64,000 nucleotides of DNA from a bacterium (GCA_030603495.1 JAUVXR010000002.1:75836-139835); one strand, 5' to 3'; positions 1 to 12,898 are shown, counted from the first letter of the stretch. The notes: generated by a model not told the origin, from the letters alone. Made by a program: numbers and translations.

Positions 1-553
1 TAACCGCTGCCTCTGCCACCTGCCGGAGTGCCTCGTTGACCACGGTAGCGTCGTCCCCCCGCCAGCCCGGAATTGGCGCGGTCTCGACAGAAACCATCGC
101 GCCATCCAGAACCCACCCCAGGAAAACGTCCATCGCCTTGAGCTCCAGGCGCACCCGGCACTGACCGGTCCCGCGGTCCACCGCCACTTCGTGCACGGTG
201 CCAGTAATTACCTTATCAACCTGGAGATACTCACCGAGACGAACCTGTTGGGTCTCCATCAGCGGCGGTACCAGCCCCAGGTCCGCCAGGGCTGCGTGCA
301 GTGAGCGCTTGGCAATAGTCCGGAACTCCCCAGAATCTTCCAAGGCCATAGCCACCGCATCGGTGGCCTTCTCCGAGGCCTTGAACGAATCGTGGCCGGT
401 GATATCCTGAATCGGCAGCACTACTGCGGAGGTCATCTCGGTAAAGGCTTGCCCATAGGCAGCAGTCGGAGCAAGACCGTAGGGGACTGCGATCAAGACT
501 GCTACAATGAGTGCTACGTGCTTGGCTAGGGGTTCGTGGCTTATCCGGTACAT
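1..553 (-). CDS. Exported protein, CsgG/TolB-N-like domain (5' part; runs off window edge)
   Basis: Manual translation from ATG at 553: MYRISHEPLAKHVALIVAVLIAVPYG...VVLPIQD...ATDAVAMALEDSGEF...VRLGEYLQVDKVITGTV; frame is open to position 1; GGGAG upstream. Confidence 0.6.
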   Translation of the reverse strand, partial: MYRISHEPLAKHVALIVAVLIAVPYGLAPTAAYGQAFTEMTSAVVLPIQDITGHDSFKASEKATDAVAMALEDSGEFRTIAKRSLHAALADLGLVPPLMETQQVRLGEYLQVDKVITGTVHEVAVDRGTGQCRVRLELKAMDVFLGWVLDGAMVSVETAPIPGWRGDDATVVNEALRQVAEAAV

Positions 554-2572: not shown

Positions 2573-2661
2573 TGGTGCCGGGGATGGGATTTGAACCCAT
2601 ACGCTCCTTGCGGAGCCCAGGATTTTAAGTCCCGTGCGTCTGCCGATTCCGCCACCCCGGC
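2573..2661 (-). tRNA. tRNA-Leu(TAA)
   Basis: GCCGGGGTGGCGGAATCGGCAGACGCACGGGAC-TTAAAA-TCC...GGTTCAAATCC...CACCA; long variable arm. Confidence 0.95.
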
Positions 2662-2785
2662 CCTAGCCTTGATATTAACATACCCCGCTCAGGCTGTCCA
2701 CCAATCCCCAATTTCCCCCTACTCCGCTGGCACCGGGTGTTTCCGCTTGGTTGACGGTTGGCTCAAGGCCTACCGTGATGGCCTG

Positions 2786-3064
2786 TTATTCGTCCCTAGT
2801 TCGCAAATGGGCGTGAGGATCAACCCCAATTGACGTAAGGTACTCATCAATAGCCCGGTGCTTGGCCAGGGCGCAGCCCAAGGTGATAAGCTCCGCGGGA
2901 TCTACTTCTTCCAGGTCCACGGCACCGAGTTCGCCCAGCTCGCGCAGGCACTTGTGGAAGTCAATGGTGCGGACCACTTTAGCGCCGGCAACAGTGTCTT
3001 CGATTTCGACCTCTACGTTCTCGGGCACTTCTATGGATGTCAATATGCGCGCCTTTATAGCCAT
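2786..3064 (-). CDS. Hypothetical protein (92 aa)
   Basis: ORF with AAGGAG SD and protein-like composition. Confidence 0.65.
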   Translation of the reverse strand: MAIKARILTSIEVPENVEVEIEDTVAGAKVVRTIDFHKCLRELGELGAVDLEEVDPAELITLGCALAKHRAIDEYLTSIGVDPHAHLRTRDE

Positions 3065-3087
3065 GCAACTGCTCTCCTTGCTTTCAG

Positions 3088-3241
3088 ATTACCCGCCTTG
3101 CTTGACGGTCAGCTCAAGGTCTGGCATAACCGTAGAACTAGAAAGCGAGCTGTGGACACCGACTATATTTCGCTCCCCCAGGCCTAGCCTCCGCAACCCC
3201 TGCTTCATATCTTCTTTGGTGAGGACGGTTTGTCCGATCAT
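3088..3241 (-). pseudogene. Truncated AAC(3)-family N-acetyltransferase N-terminus fused to the junction repeat
   Basis: MIGQTVLTKEDMKQGLRRLGLGERNIVGVHSSLSS (AAC(3)/YokD N-terminal VHSSLS motif) runs directly into MPDLELTVKQGG*. Confidence 0.65.
3093..3127 (-). repeat. Junction repeat copy R1 (MPDLELTVKQ)
   Basis: ATGCCAGACCTTGAGCTGACCGTCAAGCAAGGCGG. Confidence 0.9.
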
Positions 3242-3276
3242 TTTGAACTAACCTCTTAAGGCTGGTAGCAAACTGA

Positions 3277-4398
3277 CTACCATCTATCGCTCGCGGGGTG
3301 ATGATACGGTACCTCCGGCAGCAAGGCCTGCAGAGCTTGCGCCACCTCGGGGCCGAGCTTGGGTCTCAGCGTCAGACCGCCGCGCAGGTAACCCTCCCAG
3401 GCGGAGATCATGCCGCAAACGATCTGCGTCAGCAGCTCGCGGGATCCGACCAGGTCCAGAGCCGCTCCCGACCCACCCAGTCCGAGAGTACCGGATTGCT
3501 CACCCCAGGTTAGCGTGATTGCTTCCGCCAAGACTGATTTATCCAAAGCAGTGGCTCTCTCCTCAAACATAGGGCGCAGCAAGTTAAGCAGCCCCGGCAG
3601 GTCGAGGATTTTGAACTGGAAAACACAAGCCGGTGCCGGCCGGTAGCCGCGAGCCCACAAGAGATGCACCAGTGGTTGGTCGCCCTCCGATATGGAGAAG
3701 GTGAGTTCGGTCTCTCCCAACTCTCTTACTGCGGCGCTGAGAGCATACAGAAGTGCGTCAGCGACTACTAGTCGATCCTCGATGTCCGGGGGAACAAAGA
3801 GCCCCGCCACCAAGCCGGGCCAGTATAGGAAGCGCTCGCAGAATCCGATTATCTCTCCGTGTTTCTCGGCGATAACCCCGACTGGCTCTTGACCGCCTTT
3901 TCGACACCCCTCTTCGCTTGTATACCAAGAATGGCTTTTCCTCCACCAAACCAGGTTCTTCTCACACACACCAAAGTACGGCCGTTGGACCTGTTTGACG
4001 AAGCTTAGCACGGCGGCTTCATCATCGTCGCAATATGGCCGCACTGCGACCTGCCCAGCTTGCTCCGTTGCAAGCGGGCCGCTATAATTACGTTGGTTAA
4101 AGAGGTATACATGGCCAGCACGGGCGTAAAGCCGGCGGGGGTGATTACCAGCACTCACGGCTGAGCAGGTATAACCATGGTCTAGCGCAAACTGATGCGC
4201 TCGCTGCATCATGCCAGCGGCGATGCCTCGACGCCGCACGCTCTCGTCGACGCTTACACCGCCAATCCCAGCTAGCGGAACACAGACCCCAGTGGGAAAC
4301 TGAAAGGAAATATGGGGAACTGTGATGCGACCGACATCGTTGCTCTCTAGGGCGGCTATAACAGTATTCGCTTCCCATCGGAACCGAGGTTCAGTCAT
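3277..4398 (-). CDS. Eis-like tandem GNAT acetyltransferase with C-terminal SCP2-like domain
   Basis: AGIGGVSVDESVRRRGIA acetyl-CoA motif, LYARAG, second GNAT lobe, C-terminal sterol-carrier-like segment. Confidence 0.8.
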   Translation of the reverse strand: MTEPRFRWEANTVIAALESNDVGRITVPHISFQFPTGVCVPLAGIGGVSVDESVRRRGIAAGMMQRAHQFALDHGYTCSAVSAGNHPRRLYARAGHVYLFNQRNYSGPLATEQAGQVAVRPYCDDDEAAVLSFVKQVQRPYFGVCEKNLVWWRKSHSWYTSEEGCRKGGQEPVGVIAEKHGEIIGFCERFLYWPGLVAGLFVPPDIEDRLVVADALLYALSAAVRELGETELTFSISEGDQPLVHLLWARGYRPAPACVFQFKILDLPGLLNLLRPMFEERATALDKSVLAEAITLTWGEQSGTLGLGGSGAALDLVGSRELLTQIVCGMISAWEGYLRGGLTLRPKLGPEVAQALQALLPEVPYHHPASDRW

Positions 4399-4500
4399 CG
4401 GGAATGTCCTCCTGTGATACTTTCGGCTTGTTCGGAGCGGTCAAGTCGGCGAAGAATATCCCAATCTCCGCGGCGTCCGCTGGCTACCCTTCTGCCGACT

Positions 4501-4602
4501 AGCTTCGGCGTTGCACCAGTCACGGACGGTCCTTACCGCGATATCTAGCTGTTTAGCCGGCTACCTGACGGTCAGCTCAGGGTCTAGTACTCACTGCTGC
4601 CC
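4501..4602 (-). pseudogene. Junction repeat copy R2 continuing into an excisionase-like HTH remnant
   Basis: Reads VLDPELTVR*PAKQLDIAVRTVRDWCNA directly after the GT2 stop codon; matches the LTVxQAAxxLxIxxRTVRxW pattern of HTH_17/Xis. Confidence 0.7.
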
Positions 4603-5661
4603 TTCGTCGCACCTTGCTATCCCGCTCGTGAGTACGTTCAACCAGCTTGCCAAACGCTGCTTGACTAACAACACTGTCGCATAAAGCCACCTCGCCCGGG
4701 CCTTCCCTGACCAGGGAAGCTGGCGCAGGATATACGCGAACTGCCACCGCGCCTTTTCGAGCTTGCCGCCGGCCAGGCACATCTTGCCCGCCTCGTAGTG
4801 CTCCCGCAGCGGACCATATTCCAACGGGCCCAGGTCTTGCTTGGCCTGGGCAAGCTGCCTCTCAAGCTCTGCGTCCCGGTCGAACTCAATGCCTCTCTGC
4901 TTAGCCCGGAACTGCGCTTGGGCTGTGCGGGCTAGGGCCATTTGCTCGTGCGTGTGACGAGTCGAGACCTGCCCGGCGCGGTGGCGGATCATCACCAGGG
5001 GCTCGGGCACGAATCCGATGCGCGAGCAGGCGCTAACTCTGAGGATCAGATCAAAGTCGCTGGCATACCGGAAGAACTCGTCATAGCTATTGAGCTGTCT
5101 TAGCACAGACATACGTATCATACTAGACGAGTGAACGAAGGGCATGCGGCATTGCTCGAAAACACGGCGGTGGGCGCCAGCATCGTCCCGAGGCTTTTTC
5201 GGGTGGGGGTGACCGGCGATCGTGCCCTCCTCGTCTATCGCCCACGATGTGCCCCCCACCAGCCCTAGCTCAGGCCTCTCCCGGATCGCGGCAACGCTCA
5301 GCGCGAATCGCTCGGGCCGGGCAACATCATCGTTATCGAGGATAGCGGCGAATTCGCCCCTAGCGGCAGCAACAGCCCGGTTGCGCGACGCGGTCCCACC
5401 GACGTTGCGTTCATTTCGCAAGAGCCGAACGCGTGCGTCCCTATTGGCGAATTCCTGGACGATTTCGGCGGTCCGATCGGTGGAGGCGTCATCTACCACA
5501 ATCAACTCCCAATCCTGATAGGTCTGCGCCAGTACCGAGGCCACCGCCTCCCCGACATGGGCCTCACAATTGTAGGCGGGCATGATGACGCTGACCAACC
5601 CGGGGATGCAGTTGGCGCACTTACCAGCCATCTGCTTGCCGGTCAGCTCAAGGTCCGGCAC
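4591..5661 (-). CDS. Glycosyltransferase family 2
   Basis: VSVIMPAYN, VVDDASTD, SRN, LDNDD (DxD), SDFDL motifs; the N-terminus is supplied by repeat R3. Confidence 0.9.
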   Translation of the reverse strand: MPDLELTGKQMAGKCANCIPGLVSVIMPAYNCEAHVGEAVASVLAQTYQDWELIVVDDASTDRTAEIVQEFANRDARVRLLRNERNVGGTASRNRAVAAARGEFAAILDNDDVARPERFALSVAAIRERPELGLVGGTSWAIDEEGTIAGHPHPKKPRDDAGAHRRVFEQCRMPFVHSSSMIRMSVLRQLNSYDEFFRYASDFDLILRVSACSRIGFVPEPLVMIRHRAGQVSTRHTHEQMALARTAQAQFRAKQRGIEFDRDAELERQLAQAKQDLGPLEYGPLREHYEAGKMCLAGGKLEKARWQFAYILRQLPWSGKARARWLYATVLLVKQRLASWLNVLTSGIARCDEGQQ

Positions 5662-5675
5662 GGGTTACTCCTCAC
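5612..5675 (-). repeat. Junction repeat copy R3
   Basis: GAGGAGTAACCCGTGCCGGACCTTGAGCTGACCGGCAAGCAGATGGCTGGTAAGTGCGCCAA. Confidence 0.9.
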
Positions 5676-6381
5676 TCTCCGGCGTTATAATGCCGAGAGC
5701 AAAAGCGTCCGGCGGAGGCCTATACTCATCATAAACAAAGAGAAGGCTCTTGAAATGATCGTTGAACCTGGCGAATAATTCAACCCCTTCCTGCTGCAAC
5801 CCCAAAGCCTCCAACCGAGTTGATGTAGATGCCTGGCAAAGCTCGGGAAAGTCTCCTACCGCATTGTCTACCAGGCGCGCCGCAGTATAAGCCCAGAAGG
5901 AATAGTAGATGGAGTAAGGATCATCCCGGAGATTCCTGACAGCCCATTTGAGTCTCTCACAACTTCTCTTATTAAGCTCGCGAGACTTTTGTATTGCCTG
6001 CAGTTCTTCCGTCGTGCCTCTAGGGGAGGCAATGCTTATCACCCGCATGTCTCGTTCGATCCGGTCGAGTACTGCGGACGGACCGTTCGTGACCGGGGCT
6101 TTACCCTCCTCCGTGCCTCTAGGGGCGGCAATGTCTATGTTCTCCAGAAGTTCCCACACTTCCGAATTCCAGTTGTCAACGTCACTTGCCCATTGCCCAA
6201 CCTCCGCAGGACTCTCAAGCTCAAGGTCCAGAACAGGCTCCCCCTCGGCTGGGGTGGGAGGCTCCCCGGCTTCCTGGGCAAAAGCCGCCTGCCCCAAGAA
6301 GAGCCAATTCCCCAGCATACCTCCACCCAGCCCGGCTACTGCCAATACTGCCAGTGCCACATAATACTGCTTACGGTTCAT
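5665..6381 (-). CDS. Hypothetical exported protein
   Basis: Signal peptide ending AFA-Q; GGAGG SD. Confidence 0.7.
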   Translation of the reverse strand: MNRKQYYVALAVLAVAGLGGGMLGNWLFLGQAAFAQEAGEPPTPAEGEPVLDLELESPAEVGQWASDVDNWNSEVWELLENIDIAAPRGTEEGKAPVTNGPSAVLDRIERDMRVISIASPRGTTEELQAIQKSRELNKRSCERLKWAVRNLRDDPYSIYYSFWAYTAARLVDNAVGDFPELCQASTSTRLEALGLQQEGVELFARFNDHFKSLLFVYDEYRPPPDAFALGIITPESEE

Positions 6382-6424
6382 CTCTCTGCCCTCCGTGTTT
6401 GCTTGGTGTGACTGCGGACTCTGC

Positions 6425-6478
6425 CCGCCTGCTTGCCGGTCAGCTCAAGGTCTGGGATAGGCGACTCCTCGCCCGCCC
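6425..6478 (-). repeat. Junction repeat copy R4
   Basis: GGGCGGGCGAGGAGTCGCCTATCCCAGACCTTGAGCTGACCGGCAAGCAGGCGG. Confidence 0.9.
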
Positions 6479-6551
6479 GTGGCAGCTTTCCATCCTATCA
6501 GGCGCCACTGGTGCGATACCTTTACGTTTCACTATACGCGCTTCCCGTGCG

Positions 6552-7058
6552 TCACCAGAGCTCCAACATCTCGTCGCCCACAAGCGTCTCTCCCTGTTCC
6601 CACTCGGCGACTGGCACGTCTTCCATGAAGAACTCTATGCCCAGGTCCCCGTCGGCGATCTCCGGGAAGTAGTCGCGCACAATGCCGGCAAGCTTCTCGG
6701 CTGCCTCAGCGTAGGTAGTCTTTACCTCCTCGTCAGAGCACGCGAAGTCTCCGTCACCCAGATACATATCCCAGTCGGGTTTGGTGCTCGTGTTTACTTC
6801 CAGGTTTATACCCCAGTACTCAACGTAAAGTACAGAACTTGTCTGCACGAGCCGGTCGGTGAGATACCGCTCGTAGCCCTCAAGGGCGTTGAATTGAACC
6901 TCCCGCCACTCCACCAGCGTCGGGGTGTGAGACTCCGAATAATACTCCGGCAGAAAATCAAGAACCAATACCTCTTCTTCCTGCGCCACTACCATTCCGG
7001 CGACAAACGCCACAACCACGGCTGCTCCAATTGTCAGCCACAACCACTTCTTGCTCAT
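6552..7058 (-). CDS. Hypothetical exported acidic protein
   Basis: MSKKWLWLTIGAAVVVAFVAGMVVA-Q signal peptide; also in frame with the upstream repeat ATG at 7133. Confidence 0.7.
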   Translation of the reverse strand: MSKKWLWLTIGAAVVVAFVAGMVVAQEEEVLVLDFLPEYYSESHTPTLVEWREVQFNALEGYERYLTDRLVQTSSVLYVEYWGINLEVNTSTKPDWDMYLGDGDFACSDEEVKTTYAEAAEKLAGIVRDYFPEIADGDLGIEFFMEDVPVAEWEQGETLVGDEMLELW

Positions 7059-7080
7059 TCTCAGTCCCTCCCTCGTAGAG

Positions 7081-7150
7081 TTGTTGGCGTACTTACCAGC
7101 CGCCTGCTTGCCGGTCAACTCAAGGTCTGGCATTGGCTATTCCTCGCCCT
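7081..7150 (-). repeat. Junction repeat copy R5
   Basis: GGGCGAGGAATAGCCAATGCCAGACCTTGAGTTGACCGGCAAGCAGGCGGCTGGTAAGTACGCCAAC. Confidence 0.9.
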
Positions 7151-7565
7151 CTTGCTTCGGCGGGAAGAACAACCGGCGGCGGGTCGCCAATACCCACACG
7201 AACAGAGCTATCGTGATGAGTCCCGGCAGCCCGACAAAGAAGACGAAGAAGCCCAGAAACAGCTCCCCTCCAATATCCCGCCGTGTTGCTAAGAACGCCA
7301 AGCCTAAGCCTACGAGCCCTACTATAGCGAGGCTCGTCCAAACTGCCCCGCACCACCATCCCCACCGACGCAGCCGCACTAGGCCCCAGATTGTCACAAA
7401 GCCGAACAGGACTACAGGAAGGACTACAGGACTATAAGAATATAGACCGCTAAACAGCCCTGCCACGACCTGCAGGCTTACAGACCCGACTATTGCCGCC
7501 ACGACATACACCGGCCAGACGGACGGCCTGGCTCTGTGCTTGTCAGTATCTCTAAGCGTGTTCAT
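7137..7565 (-). CDS. Small 4-TM membrane protein (paralog A)
   Basis: Hydrophobic; GLVRLRRWGWW motif; termini shared with the next gene. Confidence 0.75.
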   Translation of the reverse strand: MNTLRDTDKHRARPSVWPVYVVAAIVGSVSLQVVAGLFSGLYSYSPVVLPVVLFGFVTIWGLVRLRRWGWWCGAVWTSLAIVGLVGLGLAFLATRRDIGGELFLGFFVFFVGLPGLITIALFVWVLATRRRLFFPPKQEGEE

Positions 7566-7656
7566 CTGTCTCACCCTCTTGCCTATTTACCCCGCAACAA
7601 AATAGGTCGGCTAGTGCGCCAGCTTTCGCTCTACGGGCTTCCTGTGCGCCTGTGGG

Positions 7657-8106
7657 CTATTCCTCGCCCTCTTGCTTCGGCGGGAAGAACAACCGGCGGC
7701 GCGCTACCAAGAGTCCTAAAACGGCAACTCCAAGGCACACTGCGGGGAGCATGACCGACCCCGCCCACTCCACCAGCCCCAGCCCCAGTATGGGCAACGC
7801 GCCCCCGACTATCCATATTCCAGCGAATACACTTCCACACCACCAGCCCCATCCCCGCAATTGGAGCAGGCCACTGGCTGTGACGAGTCCGAAGAGCCCG
7901 AATACGGCACTAGCTAACGGTAGGACCAGGAAAGCCGCGTCAGACACCGAAACAACAGGCCCCCGGATGACGGACAACAGGCCACCCCATAGCAAGACCA
8001 TAGCCAGGTGCGCCAGGGCGATAATCAGCACCGCCACCACCGCCACATACACCGGCCAGACGGACGGCGTGGCTTTGCCCTCGTCAGTGTCTCTGGGCGT
8101 GTTCAT
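7657..8106 (-). CDS. Small 4-TM membrane protein (paralog B)
   Basis: GLLQLRGWGWW motif; ends RRRLFFPPKQEGEE like paralog A; GGAGG SD. Confidence 0.75.
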   Translation of the reverse strand: MNTPRDTDEGKATPSVWPVYVAVVAVLIIALAHLAMVLLWGGLLSVIRGPVVSVSDAAFLVLPLASAVFGLFGLVTASGLLQLRGWGWWCGSVFAGIWIVGGALPILGLGLVEWAGSVMLPAVCLGVAVLGLLVARRRLFFPPKQEGEE

Positions 8107-8178
8107 CTGTCTGCCTCCTGTCGCCGACTTACCCCTGTCTGATGGTCGGATAGTGCCTTGGCAACCTATGAGTAGTGA

Positions 8179-9438
8179 CTATGGTAACACAGGCGCGGAA
8201 CCGGGTGTCAGGGTTATCAAGGCCCCGTAGCTGAGGAGGTTGTCCGGAAAGGCCCCCATCCCGGCCCGCAGTGCCGCCTCGTCACCCGCAAGTTTCTCGG
8301 CCGTCCGTTGGAACTCATCTGCGGCCGACTTGCCTCCGGCCGCCCCTGTCTCGCGGCAGATCTGGGCCATCAAGAACCACGGGCCCGGCGCCTGGGGGAT
8401 CTGTTCCGTCGCCTGACGGAGAAGCGACAGGGCCTTCTGGACCCGCTTCTGGCGGTAGGCCAGGTACCCTCGCTCCTGAAGGAATATGAACCGGTAGCCC
8501 GGGGACAGGTCCCTAACGTTCAGGCCGGCGCGATACCGCTCTTCCGCCTCGGCGGGCTTCCCCGTGGCCGCCAGCGAGTAGCCGTAGAGGTAGTACTCCG
8601 CCGCTTGCTGATTCGGGGTCCGCGGCGGGTATGCCGACGTCGTCGCTAGAGATGGCCGGGCGCCGTCCTTTGGTGTGAGGACGCAGCACATACGGTCGGC
8701 GGCAGACCACATCGCCTCGAAGTCGTCGTAAGGCACCTCCCAGGCGGGGCCGAACACTGGATCGTGGACGATGACCACGCGGCGAGCCGGGTCAAGACCG
8801 ACCACCACGCGCACACAGCGCGTCGCGATCTCGTGGAGAGGGTTCATCGGGAAGGACTCGCCGATCTTGCGGTGCACATCCAGGCCCACCATGCGGCCCA
8901 CAATCCGCGACGAGTAGTCCTGGGAGTCAAGGTCCTGCAGGGTCACGCCGAATTGGGCTCCTGCGCCGATTAGCATCTCGAAGATGCCGTAGAGTTCATG
9001 TGCGTAGGGCGTGTTTGCAGTGACGACAAGCACGGGATTGCCAGCGGACAGGAGAGCACGAAGCTCGTCGAGAGTCTTGCCGTCTCCCCATTCCTCTCGC
9101 AGCGGTCCATTCTGCTCGTCGGTAGCCTTGAGGTAGTCTTCCCACGTCTTGGCATCCGGCCGGTGGTAGCGAAGCACCATCATGTGTGCTGCGCGGGAGG
9201 AGGGGTGGTACAAGATCAGCGCGGGATGCTCGATTGCGCAGCCTTCTTTGATGGAAATGAAAGGTACGCCTCCGACGAGCACCGGTGCGGGGGCTTCGGC
9301 GGGCGGTGGGTCGGCAAAGACCACCATTGAAGTGCCCAAAGGTCCCAGCGCCAGCACGGTCAGAGCGAGGAGGCACGGCAGGCCCCACCGGTGCGAAGCC
9401 GAGCCGAAGCCCTGATTCAATGTTGTTGTCGACTGCAT
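8179..9438 (-). CDS. Exported peptidase C39-like domain plus TPR protein
   Basis: GVPFIS, MVLRY, GNPVLV, RVVVGLD, VHDP, F...W pattern of the C39-like fold; C-terminal TPR helices. Confidence 0.7.
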   Translation of the reverse strand: MQSTTTLNQGFGSASHRWGLPCLLALTVLALGPLGTSMVVFADPPPAEAPAPVLVGGVPFISIKEGCAIEHPALILYHPSSRAAHMMVLRYHRPDAKTWEDYLKATDEQNGPLREEWGDGKTLDELRALLSAGNPVLVVTANTPYAHELYGIFEMLIGAGAQFGVTLQDLDSQDYSSRIVGRMVGLDVHRKIGESFPMNPLHEIATRCVRVVVGLDPARRVVIVHDPVFGPAWEVPYDDFEAMWSAADRMCCVLTPKDGARPSLATTSAYPPRTPNQQAAEYYLYGYSLAATGKPAEAEERYRAGLNVRDLSPGYRFIFLQERGYLAYRQKRVQKALSLLRQATEQIPQAPGPWFLMAQICRETGAAGGKSAADEFQRTAEKLAGDEAALRAGMGAFPDNLLSYGALITLTPGSAPVLP

Positions 9439-9558
9439 ATGTACCCCTCCTTGGAGTGCGAGCGGAGAGAGCACCGCCCGTCCTCAGCGGGAATTAGCCA
9501 TATGGTTCATTGTCAGTGATAGCGTTCTCCGAGTGACCCGGGAATTCTTGGGGCACGC

Positions 9559-9581
9559 CTCAGCAGCTCCTCACCCAGCCC
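9559..9581 (-). repeat. Short remnant copy of DUF2254 gene 3' segment
   Basis: ctcagcagctcctcacccagccc matches 10841-10863 at 22/23 nt. Confidence 0.75.
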
Positions 9582-9645
9582 CGCCGGCAGCCCCATTCAG
9601 TTTACTCGCTGGGTGGCTCCAGCAGTCCCCGGCCCGACCAACAAC

Positions 9646-10185
9646 TCAACTTCCCCCGGTTCGGACAAACCTCTTATAGCCCAGGGCAATCGTCACGATC
9701 AGGCCAACCCCCACGGGGATGACGGCGGTTTTCGGGCTATGAGCGAAACCCAAGCCTATACTGAAGATAAGCGTAAACAACCCGCCCAACAACAGGCCTT
9801 CGGCGATCACCGGCAGGCTGCTGGCGAACCCGACGCCAACCGCCATCACCAGCACAGAGATGAGCAGCGACAGCAGGGAGACATTCCGGGCACGTCTCTC
9901 GGTCTTGTCCGAGAGAGCCTCGTGGAGCTCCTCCCGTTTCTCTTGCTCGGCCTCATACCTTTTCAGCGAGGTCTCATAGTCCTGAAGCTTGGCTCGTTTC
10001 TGGGCAGCACTCAACCCCTCAAGGTCTAATGCTGTGGGTTTGTCTGGCGGCGACTCATACCGGGGCACACCTGCATACTCCGATTCCCAGTCCGGGGCCG
10101 GGTATAAGGCCGCCATGGCCCACGCCACAAACAGCACTAGCAGCACGCCGAGGAAAATGCAGTACAATACTTTGATTACCATCAC
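9646..10185 (-). CDS. Hypothetical membrane protein
   Basis: N-terminal TM, coiled linker, three C-terminal TMs. Confidence 0.75.
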   Translation of the reverse strand: MMVIKVLYCIFLGVLLVLFVAWAMAALYPAPDWESEYAGVPRYESPPDKPTALDLEGLSAAQKRAKLQDYETSLKRYEAEQEKREELHEALSDKTERRARNVSLLSLLISVLVMAVGVGFASSLPVIAEGLLLGGLFTLIFSIGLGFAHSPKTAVIPVGVGLIVTIALGYKRFVRTGGS

Positions 10186-10260
10186 TTCGCCCCCCTTGAA
10201 TCTGAGAGATTGTCGCCAGCACCCACTACTTTCGCCGCGCTGGACGCAAGGTCCTGCTGC

Positions 10261-10401
10261 TCAGCCGGGGGCCGGCAACTGCTTGAAAAATTCGCGGAGG
10301 GGGGGACGCAGGTCGGGGTCAAGGTAATCGAAGTTCACGCCCCGGTCGGTAATCTCCCCGAACTCCGGCTCGGTCACGCTCAGCAGCTCCTCGCCCAGCC
10401 C
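10261..10401 (-). repeat. 141-bp direct repeat of the DUF2254 gene 3' end (10723-10863)
   Basis: Ungapped alignment with about 10 mismatches by eye, including the stop codon. Confidence 0.95.
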
Positions 10402-10490
10402 CCGATTGTCCTGTCGCTGCCGCCTAGTTGTCAAGGTTCACGGATTGGTCTCATTGTTTCACCTCCTTCCTGTCTTTGTGAACCGTTACC

Positions 10491-10580
10491 TCAGTGTTTA
10501 CGCTTGCGCTCCCGCTCCTGCTTCTGTTCTTCACGTCGTTTCTTTGCCCTTTTCACTCTCTTCGCGCCCTTGCCTGCCAC
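10491..10580 (-). CDS. Putative 29-aa highly basic peptide
   Basis: GAGGTG SD then GTG: MAGKGAKRVKRAKKRREEQKQERERKRKH*. Confidence 0.4.
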   Translation of the reverse strand: MAGKGAKRVKRAKKRREEQKQERERKRKH

Positions 10581-10722
10581 TGCTCTCACCTCAATTCGTC
10601 GGCCACAGTTAAGTACAACATCAGACCTACCCAAACGACACCTCAGAAGTAATAGCTGCGTATAATCGCTTTCATAACCGGCAACCCCCTTCCGCTTCTT
10701 TCCGCCCGAAAGCCCCTGCTCA

Positions 10723-12258
10723 TCAGCCGGACGGCGGCAACTGCTTGAGCAATTCGCGGAGGGGAGGGCGTAGGTCGGGGTCAAGGTAATCGAAGTTCAC
10801 GCCCCGGTCGGTAATCTCCCAGAACTCCGGCTCGGTCACACTCAGCAGCTCCTCGCCCAGCCCAACAAGGACATCAGGCTCAACCTGGCGCAGAGCCGCC
10901 TGTACCTGCTCCTGCAACGACTCGGCCCCTGCGGACAGATAGAAAGCGCCCAGCGCCAGCCACATCTTGTATACACCCGCCAGCGCCTGGCTGAAACCTC
11001 GCCTCTGCAGCGCCCCGCCCAACGATAGGAAAGCCGCGAGCAGATCAGCAGTCAGCGGGCAGTCCTGTTGATAGGCCACGCGATTGAGGACTTGCAAGTC
11101 ATAGGCTACCGTCTCGGCGACGAACTGCACCCCCTGGCCCTCCGCGACGGGGGCATAGTAGCACAGATGCTGGCTGATGCGGACGGCCAGTTCCGGCCGG
11201 GAGTCTACCAGGTATTCAGCGAGGCTGCGATACTCGGCCAGCAGATTATAGATGATACCCTTTTGCCGGCTATTTATCGCCTCGCGCAGGAAGGTGTTGA
11301 AGTGCTTCACCACCAGCTCTACCACGGTATCATCGCCGGCGGACAGAGCGCTTTCCCCCAGACGCCGGGCGCTTACTGCTACCGCCGTCGCCACCTCCCG
11401 AGAGCCTCCCAGAGACGAGCTGAAGATGCCCTGCAGCTCGCGGAGCACCTTGACCTCCACCCAACTGCGTTCCTGCTCAATGCGGCTGACATACTCCTCG
11501 GAGGGGCCCAGGAAAATGCCCGGCTCAACGATGAACCACTGCTGGGGCTGCTGCGGCTTGCGCTCAAGGCAGTTCGCCGAAATATCCATCAGCGCCCAGA
11601 CGCTGCTGAGCGCGACGCTGGTGTCGTTAATGCGCAGAGAGCCTTTGGCAATATCGCTGATCTGCTCCAGGCTCTGGCTGAACCGCAGCTTGGGACTGCC
11701 CTCGGGAGTCGCCCTGCGGGGGGCCTGCTTCAGACAGCCCAGGGCACGCGATTTTATCTTGCTAATGATGCTGGTGGGCGCCAGGAAACTAAACACGAAG
11801 AAGATGTACGGGATCAGAGAGGCCAGACAGACCGTCATCAATATCAAGCACGTCAGGATCCCGAAGCGCGGGCCAAAATCTGGGGTTATCGTGTTGGCGA
11901 CATAGAAACAGTAGATGATGGTGGATATGAAGACCGCCAGGAGTAGCAGGTTGGCCTTCGCCTCGATAAACAGGTCAATCAGCTTGGGGGTGTAACGGCT
12001 GGCGGTAAGCTCGACGACGATCAGGGCCAGAGTTATGGTGATAGCCAGCACGGTGCTAAGTGCACAGGCGATAGAGGTGAGGGTGTAGCGAGCGGTAGAT
12101 GGGTCGGCCGCCAGCGACGATTCCGCAAAGTTGCCCGGGAGTTGCTGGCGGGCCAGGTCAACGGTCTGAATCACCGAGAACAATGCGACAACTACCACCA
12201 CAATGACAATTGGCACAACTTTGGCCAGCCAGCGGATGCGATGTGATAGGCCTCTCAT
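10723..12258 (-). CDS. DUF2254-family membrane protein
   Basis: Four N-terminal TMs with 'VELTASRYTPKL' motif, then a helical cytoplasmic domain. Confidence 0.8.
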   Translation of the reverse strand: MRGLSHRIRWLAKVVPIVIVVVVVALFSVIQTVDLARQQLPGNFAESSLAADPSTARYTLTSIACALSTVLAITITLALIVVELTASRYTPKLIDLFIEAKANLLLLAVFISTIIYCFYVANTITPDFGPRFGILTCLILMTVCLASLIPYIFFVFSFLAPTSIISKIKSRALGCLKQAPRRATPEGSPKLRFSQSLEQISDIAKGSLRINDTSVALSSVWALMDISANCLERKPQQPQQWFIVEPGIFLGPSEEYVSRIEQERSWVEVKVLRELQGIFSSSLGGSREVATAVAVSARRLGESALSAGDDTVVELVVKHFNTFLREAINSRQKGIIYNLLAEYRSLAEYLVDSRPELAVRISQHLCYYAPVAEGQGVQFVAETVAYDLQVLNRVAYQQDCPLTADLLAAFLSLGGALQRRGFSQALAGVYKMWLALGAFYLSAGAESLQEQVQAALRQVEPDVLVGLGEELLSVTEPEFWEITDRGVNFDYLDPDLRPPLRELLKQLPPSG

Positions 12259-12374: not shown

Positions 12375-12450
12375 TGGAGGCGGCGGCCGGAATCGAACCG
12401 GCGAATAGCGGTTTTGCAGACCGCTGCCTTAACCACTTGGCTACGCCGCC
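12375..12450 (-). tRNA. tRNA-Cys(GCA)
   Basis: GGCGGCGTAGCCAAGTGG...CTGCAAA...GGTTCGATTCC...CCA. Confidence 0.95.
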
Positions 12451-12460
12451 CCCGAAATAT

Positions 12461-12536
12461 TGGAGCGGAAGAGGAGATTCGAACTCCCGACCTTCTGCTT
12501 GGCAAGCAGATGCTCTACCAACTGAGCTACTTCCGC
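12461..12536 (-). tRNA. tRNA-Gly(GCC)
   Basis: GCGGAAGTAGCTCAGTTGG...TTGCCAA...GTTCGAATC...CCA. Confidence 0.95.
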
Positions 12537-12554
12537 ACTTGGTTTTCAACGAAT

Positions 12555-12630
12555 TGGAGCGGGAAAGGGGATTCGAACCCCCGACCCTCAGCTTGGGAAG
12601 CTGATGCTCTACCAACTGAGCTATTCCCGC
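12555..12630 (-). tRNA. tRNA-Gly(CCC)
   Basis: GCGGGAATAGCTCAGTTGG...TTCCCAA...GTTCGAATC...CCA. Confidence 0.95.
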
Positions 12631-12664
12631 CCATCGCCACCCGCCGTTACGCCCTTGCCCTTGT

Positions 12665-12712
12665 CCTGTCGTTGAGCCTGTTGTTGAACCTGTCGTTGCA
12701 CCTGCCGTCAAA
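12665..12712. repeat. 4 x 12-bp imperfect tandem repeat in tRNA spacer
   Basis: cctgtcgttgag cctgttgttgaa cctgtcgttgca cctgccgtcaaa. Confidence 0.7.
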
Positions 12713-12788
12713 TGGTGGGCGGTGCAGGGCTTGAACCTGCGACCTCTTCCGTGTGAGGAAAGCGCTCTCCCGGCTGAGCTAACCGCCC
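12713..12788 (-). tRNA. tRNA-Val(CAC)
   Basis: GGGCGGTTAGCTCAGCCGG...CTCACAC...GGTTCAAGCC...CCA. Confidence 0.95.
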
Positions 12789-12810
12789 ACTTTGCCGGTC
12801 ATACTCTAGC

Positions 12811-12898
12811 TGGTGCCGAGGGCGGGATTCGAACCCGCACGAACCTTGCGGTCACTAGCCCCTCAAGCTAGCGTGTCTGCCAATTCCACCACCTCGGC
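12811..12898 (-). tRNA. tRNA-Leu(GAG)
   Basis: GCCGAGGTGGTGGAATTGGCAGACAC...TTGAGGG...GGTTCGAATCC...CCA; long variable arm. Confidence 0.95.

Follow-up and report, generated by a model that had tools for sequence, protein, structure and literature searches.

A short direct repeat marks the seams between single-gene units in a chromosomal array of a Ca. Zipacnadia bacterium. The content of the array varies among relatives, its units are reassorted, the corresponding site is empty in a sister genus and cassettes are similar across species. We tentatively regard the repeat as the seam of a lineage-specific gene-cassette system whose units are joined by site-specific recombination, and favour this over homologous recombination at short linkers, a serious competitor to which we give somewhat less credence.

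The repeat and its position

The window (the whole stretch of 64 000 nt that was analysed) comes from a 2.67-Mb genome (G000). The repeat core reads CCAGACCTTGAGCTGACCG(G/T)CAAGCAGGCGG, commonly with the lead-in GAGGAGTAGCC in front, and is 31 nt long, or 34 nt when the frequent ATG is counted. A repeat search of the window returned a 30-nt family of six members, all on the minus strand (at 2748, 3099, 4562, 5633, 6430 and 7105; 73–100% identity). Five junction copies had been noted beforehand; the six found include a degenerate one (R2) and a weak one (R0). The 30-nt consensus with up to 3 mismatches matched 4 of the 6, and gave 0 matches in 100 shuffles. Genome-wide, 8 strong copies were detected with nhmmer (E ≤ 2e-10) and 11 by a sequence-model search at E ≤ 0.01, namely the 6 of the window and others on C9, C51 (n = 2) and C21 (n = 2, degenerate). 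These 11 copies occupy four or five loci, unlike a REP dispersed over the whole genome.

Typically, a copy lies a few nucleotides past a stop codon and 10–50 nt ahead of a Shine–Dalgarno sequence and ATG. This constant position and orientation, the strict nucleotide conservation and the lack of intrinsic terminators between cassette units (none were found) would suit a repeat that is primarily a cis-acting expression element (operator, RNA-binding-protein site or processing site) of an accessory-gene regulon, the variability of the loci having other causes and merely using the element as homology. We consider this explanation unlikely. For 6 copies folded as DNA, z-scores ranged from −2.1 to +0.9, with a covariation term of +1.25 and no stable or shared hairpin. 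An Rfam search of window positions 1–14 000 yielded tRNAs and sub-threshold noise only, with no RNA-family match for the repeat, within which no sigma-70-like promoter was found either. The flanking genes have no function in common (glycosyltransferase, acetyltransferase, NYN, recombinase, lipoprotein-like, receiver domains), all repeat-carrying loci are variable between species (see below) and partial copies are located exactly at cassette ends.

Organization of the window array

The array fills the 8-kb interval between tRNA-Leu(TAA) (2573..2661; ARAGORN and Rfam), its conserved distal anchor, and a DUF2254 membrane-protein gene (10723..12258; Pfam PF10011, 2.7e-23; orthologues found), its conserved proximal anchor; all features given here are on the minus strand. 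Nine or more unrelated genes had been predicted in this orientation, including a C39-TPR protein. The interval holds 12 ORFs. Pfam confirms GNAT, GT2, TPR and DUF2254, but no match to a C39 peptidase domain was obtained at E ≤ 0.01. Two of the membrane proteins, of 145 and 149 aa, are paralogues of each other; the remaining ORFs are mutually unrelated.

At the tRNA end, R0 (2743..2777; repeat family D2; model hit C7:78578-78610, E 8e-4) is a weak, degenerate copy just past a 92-aa ORF without family match (2786..3064) and sits 87 nt upstream of tRNA-Leu(TAA). R1 (3097..3129), which lacks the GAGGAGTAGCC lead-in, is fused to a truncated gene, an N-terminal fragment of ~38 codons of a PF02522-family acetyltransferase gene (3089..3241); the fragment ends at the 5' edge of R1, and its match P0001 (276 aa), which carries PF02522, shows 88% identity over 64% of the query. 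A 373-aa GNAT acetyltransferase ORF (3277..4398; PF00583, 2.9e-10) follows, and then R2 (4557..4591; model hit, E 1.1e-5), a degenerate copy that carries the TGA stop of the GT2 glycosyltransferase gene (4591..5661; PF00535, 9.5e-37). Directly after R2 lies a relic of the antisense 3' end of xerC (4518..4556), assigned to downstream flank family D02, which includes copies adjoining xerC in G001, G005 and G007. The 5' end of the GT2 gene is fused to R3 (5627..5673), and alignment with the G005 and G006 orthologues attributes this fusion to a deletion of ~120 nt between 8-nt direct repeats, seen in G000 only.

Next come a 238-aa ORF with a hydrophobic N-terminus and no family match (5665..6381) and a 168-aa ORF (MSKKWLWLTIG...; 6552..7058), whose orthologues in G005 and G012 share 80–91% nucleotide identity. 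The latter is followed by a composite junction (6423..6551; alignment A1 with G012, G005 and G007; model hit) made up of a REP2-like element, ~60 nt, GGGCGAGGAGTCGCC and then R4. R5 (7098..7145), found like R1 and R3 by repeat family, consensus and model, carries the TAG stop of the 145-aa gene. This gene and the 149-aa gene form a tandem pair (7137..8106), both ending PPKQEGEE*, with REP2, a second junction element, between them (7623–7648; repeat families D6 and D10). Beyond lie a 431-aa TPR ORF (8179..9474; TPR_14, 6.1e-7; 93.3% nucleotide identity to G007:C12), a partial, third copy of the beginning of the DUF2254 3' repeat (GGGGCTGGGTGAGGAGCTGCTGAG; 9559..9582; family D11), a 179-aa membrane-protein ORF (9646..10185) and a duplicate of the last ~45 codons of DUF2254 (10245..10434; family D1; 90% identical to 10707–10863), which is a second type of junction repeat. 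Between both DUF2254 3' copies, a small and highly basic 29-aa ORF was read from the sequence (10494..10583; no Pfam match).

Three of the copies, R2, R3 and R5, do contain the stop codon of the upstream gene, as had been proposed (DEGQQ*, PESEE* and QEGEE*). R3 and R5 had further been thought to provide an in-frame start for the downstream gene. ORFs can be read from there (the 168-aa ORF becomes 193 aa if begun within R5), but these starts are secondary, given the deletion behind the R3–GT2 fusion and the in-frame TAG that separates the repeat from the ATG in the G005 orthologue of the 193-aa ORF. Given the same two observations, and the presence of a start codon (ATG, GTG or TTG) inside the repeat in only 20 of 47 copies, the idea that each unit arrives translationally coupled finds no support.

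Variation among relatives

The repeat is confined to two genera (g1 and g3) of Ca. Zipacnadia (Armatimonadota), which are marine-sediment bacteria. Among 17 genomes of the family, 8 of g1 and g3 carry 3–22 copies each, 4 give marginal hits only and 5 none; a 3-mismatch repeat pattern was matched in none of 44 genomes from six other families. A scan of a public collection (185 579 species) with the exact pattern returned 9 stretches: 6 in Ca. Zipacnadia MAGs, 3 in MAGs titled 'bacterium', which coincide with G005 and G007 contigs, and 1 in a Planomicrobium contig where the rest of the core differs (4 mismatches over 27 nt). Viral contigs gave 0 matches to the pattern.

Gene order between tRNA-Leu(TAA) and DUF2254 is not fixed: the content differs in every relative examined, three close relatives (G005, G007 and G001) having other gene sets there. 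Gene sets differ likewise at the xerC and tRNA-Leu(CAA) loci, the xerC-adjoining array being present in four species, and every repeat-bearing locus varies between species in such a way that the genes between repeats change and the repeats persist. In the sister genus the site is empty. DUF2254 and tRNA-Leu(TAA) are separated by 96 nt in G009:C158, where G000 has 8 kb, and synteny is intact (tRNA cluster, DUF2254, tRNA-Leu(TAA), DUF2752-like, kinase-like), genes and repeats both being absent.

These comparisons bear on the possibility that the repeat is a miniature non-autonomous transposable element (MITE- or REP-like) inserted between pre-existing genes, as the partial copies and the recurrence of a ~125-nt composite (REP2, spacer, repeat) after one gene family might suggest. 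Such an origin is highly improbable, since the empty site is devoid of genes as well as of repeats and, among relatives, it is the inter-repeat genes that differ. Moreover, copy number is low, copies have a single orientation within an array, inverted terminal copies are absent, a search found no IS110 gene, and the two weak Y1 transposase (Y1_Tnp) matches are both distant from any repeat copy. REP/BIME elements with RAYT, palindromic units that occur in tens to hundreds of copies and flank a Y1 transposase, were rejected as a class on the basis of the 11 copies only, the lack of a hairpin and the remoteness of the Y1_Tnp matches.

Reassortment of units and the nature of the junctions

The 47 distinct repeat copies fall into 41 upstream and 30 downstream flank families, and within multi-member downstream families the upstream flanks differ almost always. 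One discrete unit, a cassette of ~330 nt (63-aa peptide), recurs in 7 contexts, in which its upstream flanks belong to 6 families; it invariably begins directly 3' of ...GGCGG and, in 4 of 4 readable cases, its end is formed by an identical 20-nt right portion of the repeat. Behind the repeat, many units begin with a leader and signal-peptide start that are conserved among them (MSKKWLWLTIG...), continued in several by a lipobox-like LAGC. Cassette identity is 91.9–93.3% between G000 and G005 or G007 (hslU, 82%) and 90.8–94.7% between G005 and G012 (hslU, 74%), with the reservation that cross-genus similarity may be inflated by misbinning because all genomes are MAGs and several informative contigs measure 3–4 kb. 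The original prediction of one gene per unit holds, with two genes in some units. Its proposal that units are added or swapped at the repeat agrees with the variable content, the empty site and the recurrence of units behind different neighbours, and may be the work either of a dedicated system or of ordinary short-linker recombination.

Ordinary recombination would be of the RecA type, following DNA uptake or particle-mediated transfer, with crossovers at short linkers of conserved sequence: the repeat itself, REP2, GGGCGAGGAG, the 5' leader and signal-peptide start that units have in common, and the copy of the DUF2254 3' end. New genes would enter through one-sided homology combined with an illegitimate joint and, as Campbell-type insertion of a circle duplicates the linker, the linker could spread without a dedicated enzyme. 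Several kinds of junction sequence are indeed used within the same arrays, including REP2, GGGCGAGGAG and the 157-nt copy of the DUF2254 3' end; the two-gene F32/F31 unit has REP2 at both ends in G007:C2 but REP2 and the repeat in G005:C81. The ~120-nt deletion, the gene truncated at the repeat edge, the xerC relic carried into the array and the failure to find a dedicated recombinase point the same way. The other junction sequences, the microhomology deletion and the gene cut at codon 38 show that non-site-specific recombination is active here as well. As the main process, homologous recombination is nonetheless only our second choice. Flank-specific sequence mostly begins directly 3' of ...GGCGG (information content drops from >1.1 bits at +30 to 0.35 at +31, where family-specific sequence starts), so that ~30 unrelated right flanks begin at one nucleotide, whereas illegitimate joints should scatter. 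In addition, a stretch of 20–31 nt just reaches, or falls short of, the length that efficient RecA recombination usually requires, and the repeat, conserved at the nucleotide level in all codon positions, is far commoner than any other linker.

Search for a recombinase

None of the window units carries an integrase, and no reverse transcriptase was found. Over the whole genome, the IntI model TIGR02249 gave 0 matches above its 265-bit cut-off (best, 80 bits), and the XerC, XerD and other tyrosine recombinases tested scored 68–154 bits. This search, the folding and the absent box consensus bear out the original prediction of an array with neither integrase nor attC ends. Outside the window array, the genome carries xerC and a large serine recombinase gene next to repeat copies. 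This xerC is the housekeeping orthologue. Canonical dif-like sites lie on C46 (...CGTATAATGTATATTATGTTAAC...) and C60, and the repeat is unlike either. In G000, G005 and G007 a repeat variant lies ~60 bp upstream of the start of the serine recombinase gene; its own upstream flank differs in each of the three, and repeat conservation stops there at +22, not +31. Against the CcrB model this recombinase scores 107 bits (cut-off 900) and is not a Ccr equivalog. Of the 8 genomes with the repeat, 3 yielded full-length orthologues of this recombinase, as did 2 genomes that lack the repeat; the recombinases of G005 comprise XerC, XerD and two partial tyrosine recombinases only. No orthologue group spanning the repeat-bearing genomes was found, and no recombinase gene tracks the repeat. 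These results weigh against the site-specific reading, as does the lack of clear dyad symmetry in the repeat (by eye, just 5-bp inverted arms).

Proposed mechanism

Each unit comprises its own 5' leader with a Shine–Dalgarno sequence, one ORF (sometimes two) and a 3'-terminal repeat copy. Units follow one another head to tail, all pointing the same way, at a few sites of the chromosome: (i) the DUF2254–tRNA-Leu(TAA) interval of the window, (ii) the xerC–hslVU interval, (iii) the region 3' of tRNA-Leu(CAA) and (iv) the region upstream of the large serine recombinase gene. In the site-specific model, recombination at the repeat would account for the gain, loss and passage of units between species: a circular cassette that bears a single repeat would recombine with a resident one. 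The joining would probably be conservative and site-specific, catalysed by a recombinase encoded elsewhere; the prime suspect is the large serine recombinase family, judging from the adjoining repeat variant in three species. Other, sloppier recombination reshapes the locus as well.

Among platforms that stack single genes as cassettes, integrons are, to our knowledge, the only one that is well understood. Here the sequences reveal the seams, the empty site, the reassorted units and the spread across species, in a phylum about which little is known and around a short, well-defined site. A dedicated enzyme, if one exists, would offer a new recombination tool and reveal a new path by which genes move among sediment bacteria; otherwise, the arrays would be a clear-cut example, in nature, of chromosomal modules shuffled through linkers.

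Comparison with known systems

In staphylococcal SCC composite islands, short direct repeats that lie at the end of rlmH are the substrate of Ccr large serine recombinases, and units lacking a recombinase are likewise stacked one after another between such repeats, next to a conserved gene. Only some SCC units bear a large serine recombinase, and here a repeat variant adjoins such a gene. However, the present units are single genes of 0.3–1.5 kb rather than islands of 3–60 kb, the target is not rlmH, and the recombinase, far below the CcrB cut-off, has a link to the repeat that is positional only. Integrative elements and integrase-less CIMEs accrete in tandem at tRNA or gene 3' ends, the junction repeat being a copy of the target's 3' end; there, as in the arrays described here, successive inserts at a hot spot next to tRNA genes are flanked by direct repeats. 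The 157-nt DUF2254 3' copies of the window fit the tandem-accretion type exactly, whereas the main repeat does not derive from tRNA-Leu(TAA), tRNA-Leu(CAA), DUF2254 or any flanking gene.

Xer-dependent elements (IMEX at dif and the pdif modules of Acinetobacter plasmids) share cassette-like modules without a recombinase of their own, and one array here abuts xerC. A dif site consists of XerC and XerD arms around a 6-bp spacer; IMEX/pdif was rejected, as the repeat differs from the dif-like sites of C46 and C60. The repeat copies are also direct repeats, not inverted pairs. The variable lipoprotein loci of Mycoplasma (vsp, vpma, vsa), which have an adjacent Xer-type recombinase, also contain many units with a conserved leader and signal-peptide start. 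In contrast to these loci, many of the present units do not encode surface proteins, the neighbouring xerC is the housekeeping one and, since all sites are in direct orientation, switching by inversion is impossible.

A further parallel is with integron cassette arrays, among which are sedentary chromosomal integrons and the integrase-less attC clusters called CALIN. In both, promoterless units of a single ORF each share one orientation, terminators do not intervene and a recombination-type site lies at the 3' end of each unit; content differs among relatives, and the same cassette is met in different arrays and species. IntI is a tyrosine recombinase with an IntI-specific insertion, and attC sites are imperfect palindromes that fold into hairpins and carry inverse core and core boxes. 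The Zipacnadia genome is without IntI, and its site is a conserved 31-nt sequence with no hairpin, whereas attC is conserved in structure and variable in sequence. There is also no attI–intI–promoter platform, the arrays being at several unrelated chromosomal spots. attC sites were rejected (6 copies without shared hairpin, box consensus absent), as was a CALIN (≥2 attC within 4 kb, no integrase), the repeats not being attC-like. It is conceivable, though we think it rather doubtful, that the system is a hairpin-free analogue of the integron, in which a non-IntI recombinase acting on an asymmetric site of 31–34 bp captures, stacks and exchanges single-gene cassettes at several Zipacnadia docks. 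This would then be a second, independently evolved gene-capture platform. Its enzyme might belong to the repeat-associated large serine recombinase family, for example, or to a class of enzymes so far not linked with recombination.

Distribution and sequence of the junction repeat

A repeat search of the window found six minus-strand copies of a 30-nt family, all in the same orientation (R0–R5; positions 2748, 3099, 4562, 5633, 6430 and 7105). Four match the 30-nt consensus with at most three mismatches; 100 shuffles gave no match. The window spans C7:75836–139835 of the genome G000, a MAG of 2.67 Mb in 62 contigs (G+C ∼60%), which contains eight strong copies by nhmmer and 11 at E ≤ 0.01 by a sequence-only model, namely the six of the window, one on contig C9 (310 nt 3' of tRNA-Leu(CAA)), two on C51 and two degenerate ones on C21. 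Among 61 related genomes a 3-mismatch pattern was matched in eight; by group, it was found in five of the seven other genomes of genus g1, two of the three of genus g3 and none of the 44 in six other families. The sequence-only model gives 3–22 copies in each of the eight repeat-bearing genomes, and only marginal matches (four genomes) or none (five) in the remaining family members. When 185,579 species (one genome each) were searched, the exact pattern returned nine stretches: six in MAGs titled Candidatus Zipacnadia, a class within Armatimonadota, and three in MAGs titled 'bacterium', which coincide with contigs of the related genomes G005 and G007. An exact-pattern stretch in a Planomicrobium contig departs from the core elsewhere (4 mismatches in 27 nt). 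Viral contigs gave no match to the repeat pattern and metagenome contigs gave eight. With so restricted a distribution, the repeat is not a dispersed element of the REP type. Text searches found no description of the repeat in print, and the main text of the paper that names the class (PMC10290634) does not mention integrons, cassettes, repeats or recombinases, nor does 'mobile' or 'horizontal' occur in it.

The 47 distinct copies share the conserved core CCAGACCTTGAGCTGACCG(G/T)CAAGCAGGCGG. Conservation drops sharply past +30 on the 3' side and fades gradually on the 5' side, through a frequent ATG and then a GAGGAGTAGCC lead-in. Unrelated ORFs end in ...EE followed by a stop because TAG occupies −9 to −7 in 17 of the 47 copies, and the repeat does contain the stop codons of three upstream genes, as originally reported. 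The accompanying claim, that units arrive translationally coupled, is not supported, since a start codon lies at −3 to −1 in only 20 of the 47 copies. When the repeat is read as a peptide (MPDLELTGKQ), conservation is as strong at third codon positions as at the other two, so the constraint acts on nucleotides; on these two grounds a leader peptide was ruled out. The 193-aa ORF, assigned a start in R5, begins at ATG 7058 with its own Shine-Dalgarno site, and in its G005 orthologue an in-frame TAG separates the repeat from that ATG. The GT2 start attributed to R3 reflects a fusion in G000, through a ∼120-nt deletion between 8-nt direct repeats; in G005 and G006 the gene is preceded by half of the repeat, by the shared leader and by a signal-peptide relic with a frameshift. 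That expression is the primary role of the repeat seems improbable to us.

The repeat has no Rfam match, folding gives no DNA hairpin common to the copies, and a consensus fold is unsupported, with covariation absent; a structured RNA was ruled out accordingly. Promoters and terminators were also looked for inside the repeat and none was found. We give very little credence to the repeat being a MITE-like element.

Reassortment of units at the repeat

It is well supported that the repeat is a seam where single-gene units stack and exchange. The flanks of the 47 copies group into 41 families upstream and 30 downstream, and where a downstream family has several members their upstream flanks are nearly always different. 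Such downstream families comprise a 63-aa peptide unit (six copies), a shared leader with a signal-peptide start (five, or six counting R3), the end of xerC (four), a further leader (three to five) and a serine recombinase (three). In multi-member families the family-specific sequence begins directly past ...GGCGG, with the exception of the recombinase, where it begins at +22. The peptide unit (∼330 nt) was found in seven contexts; its 3' end carries an identical 20-nt right part of the repeat in all four readable cases, and on its 5' side stands a full repeat that varies by context. Each unit thus consists of a leader, an ORF and then its own repeat, and sits immediately behind a repeat already in place. 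Many cassettes (G005:C81 and other loci) open with a near-identical leader and signal-peptide start, MSKKWLWLTIG...; as several of these starts run on into a lipobox-like LAGC, part of the cassette pool is a variable lipoprotein family.

Cassettes are far closer between species than hslU, which points to horizontal spread. For hslU, identity is 81–82% between G000 and G005, G006 or G007, and 74% between genus g1 and the related genome G012. The TPR gene and the membrane gene of G000 are 93.3% and 92.4% identical to those of G007, DUF2254 and the recombinase 92.9% and 91.9% identical to those of G005, and cassettes of G005 and G012 share 90.8–94.7%, where misbinning of G012 is possible because its contig is only 3.4 kb long.

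Public runs contain no more than 0.13 of the sampled words; four of them were assembled, and among the joints listed (15 of 63) none was repeat-to-repeat; the contigs are short, of low depth and from relatives, and the result bears neither for nor against excision. The listed joints relate to tRNAs and to how many copies of two membrane-protein paralogues are present.

The DUF2254/tRNA-Leu(TAA) locus and further arrays

In the window, 12 minus-strand ORFs occupy the 8 kb from tRNA-Leu(TAA) (2573–2661) to DUF2254 (10723–12258). The sister genus (G009) has the synteny intact (five tRNAs, DUF2254, tRNA-Leu(TAA), a DUF2752-like gene and a kinase-like gene), with only 96 nt between DUF2254 and tRNA-Leu(TAA). 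Other gene sets, which include toxin-antitoxin pairs, a receiver-domain gene, lipoprotein-like genes and the 63-aa peptide gene, were found at this locus in G005 (C81, C61), G007 (C12) and G001; G007 is without DUF2254 entirely. Only part of the units of G000 recur in these relatives: G007 has the TPR gene and one of the membrane genes, G005 the 168-aa gene and GT2. The locus is thus a variable hot spot, with the differing gene content that had been anticipated.

xerC and hslVU are separated by a second array, which runs antisense to the operon and has two degenerate repeats in G000:C21, three in G005:C43 and two in G007:C50, with different genes in each. In G000 (C21:6015–10608) antisense cassettes directly behind the xerC stop split the widely conserved xerC-hslV-hslU order. 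Behind R2 in the window stands a relic of the antisense xerC 3' end, which shows transfer of material between arrays. A third array is located 3' of tRNA-Leu(CAA). On C51, two inverted repeat copies (6557, plus strand; 27256, minus strand) lie 20.7 kb apart and enclose type I restriction-modification-like genes, secreted-protein genes and a large serine recombinase gene; this segment may be invertible or composite.

Pfam assigns GNAT, GT2, TPR and DUF2254 in the window array and leaves its remaining ORFs without a family match; the C39 domain originally reported was not among its assignments. None of 10 array proteins matched a defence family in PADLOC. ORF 3089–3241 is a gene start, the first ∼38 codons of a PF02522-family member that breaks off at the 5' edge of R1. 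At 0.57–0.65, the array is not distinctive in G+C content.

Mode of joining

We lean, tentatively and at slightly less than even chances, towards site-specific joining, because a sharp common edge meets ∼30 unrelated right flanks, a discrete unit recurs in seven contexts and the repeat is strictly conserved at the nucleotide level. A possible though more doubtful explanation is general recombination at short linkers, aided by illegitimate joints; it is favoured by the repeat having no dyad symmetry, by the presence of several other junction sequences and by the fact that no recombinase tracks the repeat.

Among these other junctions, a second element, REP2 (CGCACAGGAGGCCCGTAGAGCGAAAG...), lies behind the 149-aa gene (7623–7648) and, degenerate, behind the 168-aa gene (6526–6551), with more sites at G000:C24:52909 and G000:C32:18165; it is found on both sides of a two-gene unit in G007:C2 and is often preceded by GAGGAATAGCC. 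After the 168-aa gene family there is a ∼125-nt composite of REP2, ∼60 nt, GGGCGAGGAGTAGCC and the repeat. The sequence GGGCGAGGA, with five minus-strand occurrences in the array versus 86 genome-wide on both strands, leads into the repeat, REP2 or the last 45 codons of DUF2254. This DUF2254 tail (last ∼45 codons, 157 nt) is duplicated (10245–10401 and 10707–10863, 90% identity) and partly repeated a third time at 9559–9582; its copies flank a 29-aa basic ORF in the window and toxin-antitoxin genes in G005. It is a classic gene-3'-end junction repeat beside the main one, and likeness to tandem accretion is limited to it.

As for an enzyme serving site-specific joining, no orthologue group covers all repeat-bearing genomes. 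The arrays work like those of integrons but fail both defining tests, IntI and attC: no integron integrase was found, and the best match in G000 scored 80 bits, where the cut-off is 265. The recombinase adjoining the second array is the housekeeping XerC (327.6 bits, orthologues across the order), and XerD is encoded on C48. A large serine recombinase (638 aa, C51:25278–27194) has a repeat variant ∼60 bp upstream of its start; the gene is arranged likewise in G005 and G007, and the upstream flank is different in each of the three genomes. Full-length orthologues were found in only three of the eight repeat-bearing genomes and in two genomes without the repeat. Should it take part, the system would resemble SCC composite islands. 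In G005 and G007 the recombinase gene extends into an antisense tRNA. The recombinases of G005 are otherwise only XerC, XerD and two partial tyrosine recombinases. Neither IS110 nor RVT_1 was found, and Y1 gave two weak matches, away from the repeat. A half-site genome scan at two mismatches was too noisy in this GC-rich genome.

A short tyrosine recombinase near a C51 copy was discarded, as none of 16 relatives has an orthologue. Two readings of the repeat itself were also rejected. It is not the start of an excisionase-type HTH gene (...LTVKQAAKDLGIV...), a continuation that proved to be the 3' end of xerC in antisense, and it does not resemble the two canonical dif-like sites of the genome (C46 near 22065, C60 near 92869). 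The second of these two sites may mark an Xer-dependent insert.

At its C-terminus the serine recombinase has an additional ParB-like domain (residues ∼505–638), which also occurs alone (C20:54263–54646, C51:14215–14604 and C59:1026–1469), once beside a tyrosine recombinase gene. Upstream of DUF2254, a cluster of five tRNA genes (12375–12898; Cys, Gly, Gly, Val, Leu) is kept in relatives, and its heavy coverage in public runs comes from unrelated organisms. The paralogous membrane-protein genes form a tandem pair (7137–8106), and in the contigs assembled from four public sediment runs the joints fit a copy number of one, two or more in related populations.
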